Below are positions 52,050 through 54,373 of a stretch of DNA of 64,000 bases, piece by piece (positions within the stretch are counted from its first letter, which is position 1; each line of letters opens with the position of its first letter). Where the stretch lies: the IMG/VR virus record IMGVR_UViG_2698536687_000001, one strand, 5' to 3'. Below the pieces are notes generated by a model. The model saw only the letters and a list, made by a program, of their open reading frames with translations, searched no databases and had not been told where the DNA came from. Position numbers and translations under genes: made by a program. The DNA is from a virus (taxonomy: Duplodnaviria; Heunggongvirae; Uroviricota; Caudoviricetes).

Positions 52050-52206
52050 AGTTACGGCCTCACAATCAGGTTTAACAACCTGCTACCCGCTGCTAAACAG
52101 GTGGCAGGACGTGACGGGGTTAGCAGACTGGCGATTGTGAAACCAGCAGGCCGAAGCCTCCCCATCACGCCCCACCATAATTTGGGCGTAACGCGGTTTT
52201 ACGGAC

Positions 52207-52355
52207 ACAAAAATACCGCAATATCGGATATCTGCGGCTGTCCGCACAATCATTCAGGCTGCTAAACCCGGTCGCAGAATTTGCTACGACGGCGGAACTA
52301 TAAGCCTGAACGATTAAAAGGTCAATATGATGCGAAAAGATAGCATTCGTGACTT
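52207..52355 (-). ncRNA. Candidate C4-like antisense RNA, copy C
   Basis: Between operator 52364-52380 and a hairpin plus U-run (plus 52207-52237); repeated GUUUAGCAGC motif on the minus-strand RNA. Confidence 0.3.
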
Positions 52356-52363
52356 AAAAATAC

Positions 52364-52380
52364 AAATTTATTAGAGCAGA
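52364..52380 (-). promoter_or_regulatory. C1 operator-like site upstream of immI-like cassette C
   Basis: AAATTTATTAGAGCAGA, 2 mismatches. Confidence 0.6.
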
Positions 52381-52661
52381 TTAGTGTCGTGCAATAGATA
52401 TATTATTTGTGATGAAAAATAATGCAGAGGGATATTGTAACTTTAAGATGGATATCAATAGTCGATACATAAATTAAGTTAGCAATAAACTATTAACTTA
52501 AGAAATAATGCAGATGGTGAACTTGTCTCTGACTTTTCAGCTATACACAATAAGTTAGGGATAGCTTATAAAAAGTTGATTAATTGATATAAGTCAATGG
52601 GAGTATTCTTGTTTACTTTCCGTTCTCGTGGTAACTTCTCGCCGGTTTTTGTTTTTCTGGG

Positions 52662-53183
52662 ATGATTCTTATGTCTAAAAAGTATACTTTATGCGCTCTT
52701 GTTGTATCTGCAATTCTTCTTTCTGGGTGTCAATCTAGCGGTGCTGATTATGCTGCCGATGTTTATGATACCGCTCAATTGAATTCGAAGCAGGAAACAA
52801 AGACAGTCAATATTATCTCTGTGCTTCCAGCTAAAGTGAAAGTTGATAATAAAGCTAATAAAGAAGCGGCACAGACATTTGGTGCGGTACTGGGAGCTGT
52901 TGCTGGGGGCGTTGCCGGTTATAATGTTAAAGGCACATCGACACTGGGTGCTGTAGCTGGCGGTACTGGTGGTGCGGCTCTTGGTGCAGCGGCTGGTTCT
53001 TTGGTTAGTGATAAAACAATTGTTGAAGGTGTTTCACTGACTTATAAAGAAGGAACTAAGGTGTTCACTTCAACTCAAGTTGGTAAAGCATGCCAGTTTA
53101 CAACGGGGCTTGCTGTGCTTATTTCAACTAAAGATAATGAAACTCGAATTCAGCCAAATGCTACTTGTCCAGAAAAGAAATAA
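52662..53183 (+). CDS. Lipoprotein with glycine-zipper region, 173 aa
   Basis: Signal peptide with lipobox LLSGC; GAVLGAVAGGVAG...GAVAGGTGGAALGAAAG. Confidence 0.55.
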   Translation: MILMSKKYTLCALVVSAILLSGCQSSGADYAADVYDTAQLNSKQETKTVNIISVLPAKVKVDNKANKEAAQTFGAVLGAVAGGVAGYNVKGTSTLGAVAGGTGGAALGAAAGSLVSDKTIVEGVSLTYKEGTKVFTSTQVGKACQFTTGLAVLISTKDNETRIQPNATCPEKK

Positions 53184-53186
53184 TTT

Positions 53187-53726
53187 ATGAATAAAATTAT
53201 TTTATTTCTAATCTTTTCTACGTTTAGTGTAGGCACTGCCTTGGCTAACTCGTTGCAAAGTCAAATTGCTGCTATTGCTCAAGCGGAAAATGAAGGGCGA
53301 GCTAAAGAGCAGCAAGCTGAGGATGCCAGAAAAGAACTTATTCGCCAACAAGCACAAGCTGAACGTATTAGAAGAGAAAAAGCAGCATCTGCCGCTGCTG
53401 CACGCGAAAAACAGCGTGTTGCTGCAGAAAATGAACGTAGAGCGAAACGAGAAGCCGAGCTAGCAAATGACAAGAAGCGAGATCAAGCTTATGAGGATGA
53501 GCTTCGCAAGCTGCAACTCGAAAGCATGAAACTCGAACTGCAAGCAAAAGCGGCTCGTGTCCAGCGAGAAAACGATTTTATAGAGCAGGAGTTGAAGGAG
53601 AGAGCAGCTAAGACAGATGTAATTCAGTCTGAGGCTGATGCAAATAGAAATATTTCTACAGGAAGTAAAGATTTACTGCAAAGCGAAGGAAAAGCTAGAG
53701 AGAAGAAAGCTAGCAGTTGGTGGTAG
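53187..53726 (+). CDS. Secreted charged coiled-coil protein, 179 aa
   Basis: Signal peptide MNKIILFLIFSTFSVGTALA; Ala/Glu/Arg/Lys-rich helical region. Confidence 0.55.
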   Translation: MNKIILFLIFSTFSVGTALANSLQSQIAAIAQAENEGRAKEQQAEDARKELIRQQAQAERIRREKAASAAAAREKQRVAAENERRAKREAELANDKKRDQAYEDELRKLQLESMKLELQAKAARVQRENDFIEQELKERAAKTDVIQSEADANRNISTGSKDLLQSEGKAREKKASSWW

Positions 53727-53782
53727 TAATCGCTACGATTGCGAGCATACTGTCACAAATGACTACTCGTAGAATCGGGTAA

Positions 53783-54373
<591 letters not shown>

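Follow-up and report, generated by a model that had tools for sequence, protein, structure and literature searches.

A YfgH-YfgI-type gene pair as the probable P7-type allele of the sim slot in a P1-family phage-plasmid

We describe a two-gene cassette on a 64,000-nucleotide stretch of viral DNA (IMG/VR record IMGVR_UViG_2698536687_000001; the whole of this stretch is called the window below), which belongs to a P1-family phage-plasmid; the 64-kb window is a mosaic of P1-family modules and is not phage P7 itself. On the plus strand, the cassette encodes a YfgH/SlyB-family glycine-zipper outer-membrane lipoprotein of 170 residues (upf50.5 of P7; 52671..53183), recognized by DNA identity to P7 and homology to YfgH, followed by a Sec-exported helical protein of 179 residues (upf50.0 of P7; 53187..53726), placed in the DUF5384/YfgI family by Pfam PF17358 and homology to YfgI. 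We propose that the cassette is probably the allele that P7-type elements carry in the variable sim slot: an operon of two genes, low in GC and acquired horizontally, that encodes phage-lineage YfgH-YfgI paralogues and would serve as an envelope module of lysogenic conversion. Both genes are already known and have been annotated in P7 since 2003, where upf50.5 is entered as an 'outer membrane lipoprotein of unknown function'. Because of this long-standing annotation, and because phages often carry envelope 'morons', nothing here is surprising in kind. What is new is the link between the function of YfgH, its near-obligate partnership with YfgI, and the allelic relation of the pair to sim.

Alternative occupants of one slot

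The interval 52300-53800 is 99.9% identical in DNA to P7, and the genes found there in P7 are upf50.5 and upf50.0. The slot extends from the C1 operator Op51/Op(c4) to the late promoter LPsit, and holds simA-simB-simC in P1 and the upf50.5/upf50.0 cassette in the P7 type. Its left border, the operator (52364..52380, minus strand), follows the operator consensus with 2 mismatches and is a protein_bind feature of P7; homology between the P1 and P7 types breaks at about 52378, where the P1 megablast match stops (query position 79). In P1-like phage-plasmids eight regions are variable and low in GC, and the simABC genes make up one of them (PMC9603915). With reference to Devlin 1982 and Kliem & Dreiseikelmann 1989, PMC8546580 credits these genes with superinfection exclusion through a block to DNA entry, and lytic growth does not need them (PMC10695390).

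The right border of the cassette is LPsit (53756..53775, plus strand; mapped from the P7 annotation, with a -10 element TAGAAT at 53770-53775), which drives the tail genes pmgC/tubA-tub-pmgB-sit on its right. Lying directly upstream of pmgC/tub/pmgB/sit, the pair could be taken to encode structural or assembly proteins of the virion, as part of the tail module behind it, and the record of phage phi456 does label it 'minor tail protein / tail tip protein', labels that conflict with the lipobox and SlyB/YfgH homology of the lipoprotein. We set this alternative aside: each product has a lipobox or a Sec signal peptide, the pair stands outside the late operon with LPsit downstream of it, P1 does without these genes and has sim in their place, and their homologues are chromosomal envelope proteins.

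All alternative slot alleles that we examined encode signal-peptide (Sec-exported) proteins; in P1, signal peptides are found on SimB and SimC. A third allele (NZ_CP027590.1 16269-17454, equivalent to window 52381-53750) encodes two signal-peptide proteins of 215 and 158 residues, and the larger contains a 105-residue stretch that resembles residues 875-969 of Sit (36% identity, E 2e-9) around a core motif GMRxxxVQGTLEERARGxGT. This protein may be a periplasmic decoy of the Sit tape-measure/injection machinery. A fourth allele, in phage vB_EcoM-673R5, contains short Sim-like genes. An expanded slot is seen in a P1-like element of Escherichia albertii (L010 4032-8298), which encodes a 107-residue hydrophobic protein upstream of a yfgH/yfgI-type pair and, between the pair and pmgC, a 118-residue protein, a YfjT-family protein and a 389-residue SH3_3-domain protein. 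P1 Sim shares slot, orientation and exported products with our cassette; SimC differs in being a soluble periplasmic protein and not a lipoprotein. The sequence-only reading of this region had put forward envelope-targeted proteins beside an immunity locus as candidates for superinfection exclusion or receptor masking. It had recognized neither the relatives of the two proteins nor their identity with annotated P7 genes. It is mainly because the cassette fills the sim slot, whose other alleles also encode exported proteins, that we regard superinfection exclusion as a reasonable but unproven candidate function.

The copies carried by P1-family elements form a clade separate from the chromosomal orthologues, together with a copy on a 248-kb Escherichia coli contig rich in insertion sequences. 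Its members are the window copy, the E. albertii element, two variants that are 83-84% identical, and the 248-kb contig copy. The best chromosomal match to the window protein, at about 77-80%, is found in Kluyvera and Pantoea and not in E. coli. Synonymous sites between the phage variants are saturated (proportion of synonymous differences, pS, 0.58-0.77), and the ratio of nonsynonymous to synonymous change (dN/dS) is 0.04-0.10 in both genes. The phage-borne copies are under strong purifying selection, and both open reading frames are intact in every copy seen. Around the P7-type cassette, the flanking backbones are near-identical, as in the match to P7 given above. Saturated synonymous sites and low dN/dS on such backbones fit the swapping of alleles from a diverse pool and their retention by selection, and not the decay of passenger DNA.

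The same observations bear on the suggestion that the pair is selectively neutral, hitch-hiking chromosomal cargo without a role for the phage-plasmid. P1-like variable regions do gather assorted foreign DNA, including resistance genes (PMC9603915), and the low GC of the cassette is like that of other acquired segments. We nevertheless give this reading very little credence, as intact reading frames with dN/dS of 0.04-0.10 persist across deeply diverged phage variants. Of 5,426 complete E. coli genomes, moreover, 162 (~3%) contain the full P7-type cassette, which is present in 163 records (complete replicons); the P1 sim type is complete in 127. Beyond the E. albertii element, a yfgH/yfgI-type pair recurs in an E. 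coli genome, close to the tor locus and beside P2-type tail genes, and has a Rep3 replication gene as its neighbour on a Salmonella plasmid of 102 kb; these two locations indicate that the pair has been mobilized more than once. Matches at about 69% identity among IMG/VR 'viral' contigs were rejected as phage cargo; nearly all lie 10-510 nt from a contig end, and we take them as chromosomal yfgH at predicted prophage boundaries. About 60 IMG/VR contigs end 9 nt before such a chromosomal-type yfgH (~69% identity), which suggests either a recurrent prophage boundary by yfgH-yfgI in E. coli or prophage calls that are systematically over-extended.

A further possibility is that the cassette is a dedicated exclusion or receptor-masking factor that binds one specific component, such as Sit, the tail tip or an outer-membrane receptor, in the manner of Sim, Llp, Cor or Ltp. 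The shared slot with simABC would suit such a factor, as would the clade distinct from chromosomal orthologues, the mimic of Sit in the third allele, and the exchange of synonymous-saturated variants between near-identical backbones, which is the pattern of a defence hot-spot. A precedent exists in TraT: this outer-membrane lipoprotein forms rings, stems from chromosomes and has repeatedly been recruited by plasmids for exclusion (PMC11733297). We consider specific binding of this kind unlikely, however, in view of a dN/dS that is uniformly low and carries no sign of diversifying selection, of the full retention of residues invariant in the chromosomal family, and of the lack of similarity to SimC or of any Cor- or Llp-type family among the Pfam and PHROG matches. 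The receptor of P1 is the core of lipopolysaccharide (LPS), which a lipoprotein is unlikely to mask.

The lipoprotein and its helical partner

The first protein had been read from the letters alone as an exported glycine-zipper lipoprotein, and this description is borne out by a classical signal peptide, a lipobox and a Gly/Ala-rich zipper (residues 71-110). The N-terminus, as translated, is MSKKYTLCALVVSAILL-SGC-Q, with the lipobox Cys encoded at 52728-52730 and Gln at +2; with no inner-membrane retention (Lol-avoidance) residue at that position, sorting to the outer membrane is expected. The P7 annotation uses an alternative ATG upstream, at 52662, which gives a protein of 173 residues. Homologues number in the hundreds (58-89% identity). 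Cys20 of the lipobox is invariant across 51 of them, and the window protein keeps all 31 invariant columns of the family. The abundant E. coli homologue, 68% identical over 167 residues, is YfgH, as its gene lies between yfgG and guaA.

Structural comparisons place the protein with SlyB, a PhoP-regulated outer-membrane lipoprotein that forms rings around outer-membrane proteins and lipid (PDB 7OJF/7OJG). The family profile matches SlyB 7ojf over its full length (E 1.7e-9, positions 9-162). An AlphaFold2 model of the lipoprotein, with a predicted local distance difference test score (pLDDT) of only 57, contains helices at 61-85 and 92-111 between strands, and its sole significant PDB match in Foldseek is 7ojf_A (E 2e-6, template modeling (TM) score 0.71). 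The two proteins share the order of strand, glycine-zipper hairpin and beta domain; they are only about 24% identical, and SlyB lacks a DUF5384 partner gene. YfgH and SlyB do not cross-complement (bioRxiv 10.64898/2025.12.22.696046). Pfam glycine-zipper matches, taken alone, stay below their cutoffs. Among models in BFVD, SlyB/YMGG-type glycine-zipper folds match in other phages, including a protein of the Pseudomonas jumbo phage Phabio (E 2.7e-4) and several unnamed entries. We reject as a mis-annotation the 'DNA methyltransferase' label of PHROG 1277, which conflicts with the lipobox and with SlyB/YfgH homology; RefSeq records of phages with upf50.5 homologues (NC_050152, NC_031129, NC_042128) have inherited it.

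TraT (PDB 9FS5, 9FSM, 9E2V) resembles the window lipoprotein as an outer-membrane lipoprotein of a mobile element with chromosomal ancestry and a homologous two-helix membrane hairpin. Pfam TraT (PF05818) scores 23.1 bits (E 6.9e-5), under the gathering cutoff of 31, and hhalign of the lipoprotein family with F-plasmid TraT, using a TraT query 100% identical to annotated traT genes, gives a probability of 90% (E 1.5e-6) over 73 columns that cover the glycine-zipper hairpin and adjacent strands. Foldseek comparison with 9fs5, 9fsm and 9e2v yields E of about 0.3-0.5 and TM scores of 0.15-0.27, and the core domain of TraT differs (PMC12658005): its LptE-like core and beta-hairpin are missing from the lipoprotein, and TraT has no helical partner. 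Since the whole-chain structural match is poor and the core domain different, the window protein is, as judged from these alignments and models, not a TraT, and its hairpin appears only distantly homologous.

The second protein matches Pfam PF17358 (DUF5384) at 147.8 bits against a cutoff of 25, over residues 39-179, and is 47% identical to E. coli YfgI. As anticipated from the sequence, it is an exported, charged and helical protein: a cleavable 20-residue Sec signal peptide, MNKIILFLIFSTFSVGTALA|NS (…GTALA|NS), has an h-region of 12-13 residues and an AXA site, the mature part is about 41% charged and free of Pro, and AlphaFold2 predicts one uninterrupted helix over residues 3-178 (pLDDT 88). 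The mature chain of about 159 residues would measure about 24 nm as a straight helix, roughly comparable to the width of the periplasm. The term 'coiled-coil' used by the sequence-only reading holds in so far as the protein is helical throughout, but we saw no heptad or amphipathic periodicity in residues 46-92. This stretch varies in length between homologues and has the look of a spacer or a single charged helix; an N-terminal motif and the C-terminal 85 residues are conserved. A fold search with the single-helix model returned zero matches, as expected, and the DUF5384 family is small (223 clusters among 1.84 billion representatives).

The two genes form a unit well beyond phages. We retrieved 80 species-level genomes with the lipoprotein, from Enterobacterales, Pasteurellaceae, Pseudomonas, Vibrio, Aeromonadales and a few others, and in 78 of them a DUF5384 reading frame lies directly downstream on the same strand; in Xenorhabdus the pair sits in another neighbourhood, between plsY and tsaD. 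Separated by 3 nt, the window genes resemble E. coli YfgH-YfgI and Salmonella Typhi srgI-srgL in gene order, sizes (about 170 and 179 residues) and tight spacing, and share with the E. coli pair the lipobox, the glycine zipper, two conserved Cys and the DUF5384 partner. They differ from chromosomal YfgH-YfgI in being phage-plasmid-borne, in belonging to a separate mobile clade, and in having their own, unrelated leader of 289 nt. YfgH is a stress-induced lipoprotein that stabilizes the outer membrane (bioRxiv 10.64898/2025.12.22.696046; PMC3219608). Knock-down of LptD, BamA or LpxC induces it, the stability of outer-membrane proteins requires it, and AlphaFold3 predicts SlyB-like YfgH rings (bioRxiv 10.64898/2025.12.22.696046). 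The orthologous operon of S. Typhi, srgIL, is induced through SdiA and acyl-homoserine lactone (AHL) (PMC11619404).

An outer-membrane lipoprotein with a long periplasmic helical protein also brings to mind the Rz/Rz1 spanins, and thereby a role in lytic growth, either as a spanin-like two-component pair or as an outer-membrane stabilizer that times lysis or protects the infected cell. The only nearby C1 operator, Op(c4), lies 290 nt upstream, and an adjacent promoter could be C1-repressed, like the predicted PsimA of P1. We find a lytic role very unlikely; the architectural likeness is superficial. Instead of an uncleaved membrane anchor, the helical protein carries a signal with a short h-region and an AXA site for cleavage; the lipoprotein, with 150 mature residues and a membrane-spanning hairpin, is unlike a small o-spanin, and its gene comes first, the reverse of the spanin order. 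The pair is also outside the lysis cassette and upstream of the late promoter, not behind it, and its conservation in 78 of the 80 bacterial genomes is on chromosomes without phage context.

An AT-rich leader beside immI

The leader that precedes the lipoprotein gene (52382..52670, plus strand, 289 nt) is AT-rich, as the sequence-only reading had it, with 30-36% GC against about 49% in the flanks. It contains no open reading frame of at least 30 residues, and we rejected a structured RNA or riboswitch within it (folding z -0.4; no Rfam entry there). A sigma-70-like promoter candidate, TAGATA-17-AATAAT (52395..52423, plus strand), scores 9/12 in a consensus scan. Its -10 element lies inside the first of two repeats that were found in a scan of the window, AAATAATGCAGAGGG at 52417..52431 and AAATAATGCAGATGG at 52503..52517, both on the plus strand. 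The first stands exactly where it had been reported, and the second exists one base to the left of the position first given (52504-52518). These are the only two matches in 64 kb with up to 2 mismatches allowed (0.29 expected).

Both repeats are invariant in near-identical P7-type cassettes and absent from phage variants of 83-93% identity, in which only ATAATG and GCAGATG of repeat 2 persist. Their absence from these variants and from upstream of chromosomal yfgH led us to reject them as a conserved family element; nor are they C1 operators, as neither comes within 3 mismatches of the consensus, and Op(c4) is the only such site in the vicinity. In the 83-84% identical variants, repeat 2 aligns with CATATAATGTCGA, which contains a perfect TATAAT. 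Given this alignment and the candidate -10 in repeat 1, the repeats may be the -10 regions of promoters arranged in tandem.

Among the non-coding blocks of the leader, a palindrome, TTGATATAAGTCAA (52584..52597, plus strand), is conserved best; it is 1 mismatch from the FNR/CRP-family box TTGAT-N4-ATCAA. At the same distance to the start codon, variant L017 has TTGATATACATCAA, a perfect box, and the E. albertii element L010 has TTGACATTTGTCAA, a symmetric change. Within the family, only 3 of 72 upstream regions contain an FNR-like box with 1 mismatch or none (1.9 expected by chance). The palindrome was rejected as a family-wide feature; it is confined to phage-borne cassettes. No -10 element is found at canonical or class II distance from it, and control of the cassette by FNR is a hypothesis only. 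A PhoP box, sought by eye, amounts to one good half-site, TGTTTA near 52611, whose partner is poor and whose distance from any -10 is wrong. Neither the repeats nor the FNR-like palindrome is present upstream of chromosomal yfgH genes, and the window pair is probably regulated differently both from chromosomal yfgH, which responds to outer-membrane stress, and from the SdiA/AHL-controlled copy of S. Typhi.

The neighbour on the left, first called 'immI-like', is immI itself. The c4 antisense RNA (52097..52182, minus strand) matches Rfam RF01695 with 69.6 bits (gathering score 45) at the position equivalent to c4 of P7, the c4 a1b1 target lies at 52251-52303 on the minus strand (Rfam), and Op(c4) completes the arrangement. 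The minus-strand genes icd-ant1/2, kilA and repL come after c4, on the left. Transcription had been described as divergent; this is true only of the cassette relative to the minus-strand c4-icd-ant operon, and the two cassette genes themselves are co-directional. Overlapping the c4 a1b1 target region, we note a sub-threshold Rfam match to IsrK, a Salmonella Hfq-binding small RNA (52209-52290, minus strand; 43.7 bits against a gathering score of 50, E 1.4e-7). On the right, a strong hairpin with an 11-bp stem followed by GUUU (53766..53800, plus strand) was found by folding 53715-53812 (-35.1 kcal/mol, z -4.57). A consensus scan called no canonical terminator there; the hairpin, which overlaps LPsit, may be a partial terminator that damps read-through from the cassette into the tail operon.

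Further features of the window agree with its P1-family origin. Between 964 and 52380, it holds 15 C1 operator-like sites where 0.44 would be expected, and positions 1-25000 are 96-98% identical to Punavirus records. For this part, the closest record is phage vB_EcoM-673R5 (96.6% identity over 95% of the query) and not P7, and that record has annotated type I restriction-modification genes (HsdR, S subunit) in the matching region.

Envelope reinforcement and its possible payoffs

We propose that the phage-lineage pair would act on the envelope in the way of its chromosomal and SlyB relatives. By homology, the lipoprotein would be sorted to the outer membrane, insert its glycine-zipper hairpin and oligomerize into SlyB-like rings, which would hold outer-membrane proteins and lipid in stabilized nanodomains. 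The partner would be secreted, lose its 20-residue signal peptide and form a helix of about 24 nm, near the width of the periplasm, which could lie beneath the ring and cooperate with it as, for instance, a strut, tether or ruler. The genomic context suggests that the pair is expressed from its own promoter or promoters in the AT-rich leader instead of the late promoter, which would direct its action to the envelope of the prophage-carrying cell, in the role of an 'envelope barrier' of lysogenic conversion.

What the phage-plasmid would gain from such a barrier may be of two kinds. It is quite possible, short of probable, that a reinforced envelope makes it harder for superinfecting phages, P1-like or other, to penetrate or to deliver their DNA, and that the cassette in this way replaces Sim. 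It is also possible, at a somewhat guarded estimate, that the payoff is a general robustness of the outer membrane of the lysogen towards detergent, bile, complement and antibiotics, with no effect on phages. Besides the slot, the exclusion idea draws indirect support from the distant homology between the glycine-zipper hairpin of the lipoprotein and that of TraT. The proteins are plain homologues of a housekeeping and stress pair, YfgH-YfgI, for which outer-membrane stabilization is the role that has been shown, and this counts against the exclusion idea.

Several observations weigh against our proposal of an envelope module in the place of Sim. Sim itself reportedly excluded only from multicopy clones in the work of Devlin in 1982. 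The cassette proteins have no sequence similarity to SimC beyond BLASTP E of 0.04 or worse, and defence models of PADLOC-DB matched neither of them at E <=0.1. E. coli hosts already have yfgHI, so that a second copy for generic stabilization would be partly redundant. With an AlphaFold2 model of the lipoprotein as poor as that obtained here, the case for ring formation comes entirely from homology. Promoter-like sites in the region are no commoner than in shuffled sequences, and the lone consensus-type match is weak. As to a physical link between the partner and YfgH, yfgI goes unmentioned in the preprint on YfgH (bioRxiv 10.64898/2025.12.22.696046).

More speculatively, and with doubt outweighing confidence, the pair could represent an unrecognized class of phage exclusion system. 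Rings of the SlyB/YfgH type with a YfgI partner would be interchangeable with Sim, would parallel the co-option of TraT and, by mechanically sealing or reorganizing the outer membrane and the periplasm, would keep tails from penetrating and DNA from being delivered. If this is true, chromosomal YfgH-YfgI would likewise act as a machine of two components and would have an innate anti-phage side.

Phage-plasmids of the P1/P7 type are common in E. coli, and resistance genes are spread by them. Should the cassette harden the outer membrane, lysogens could become more tolerant of detergents, bile, complement, large antibiotics or other phages, which would matter for phage therapy and for the persistence of the plasmids. 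The characterization of YfgH is very recent, and its near-universal partner YfgI has been ignored; the compact phage version of the pair offers a handle on what the two proteins do together.

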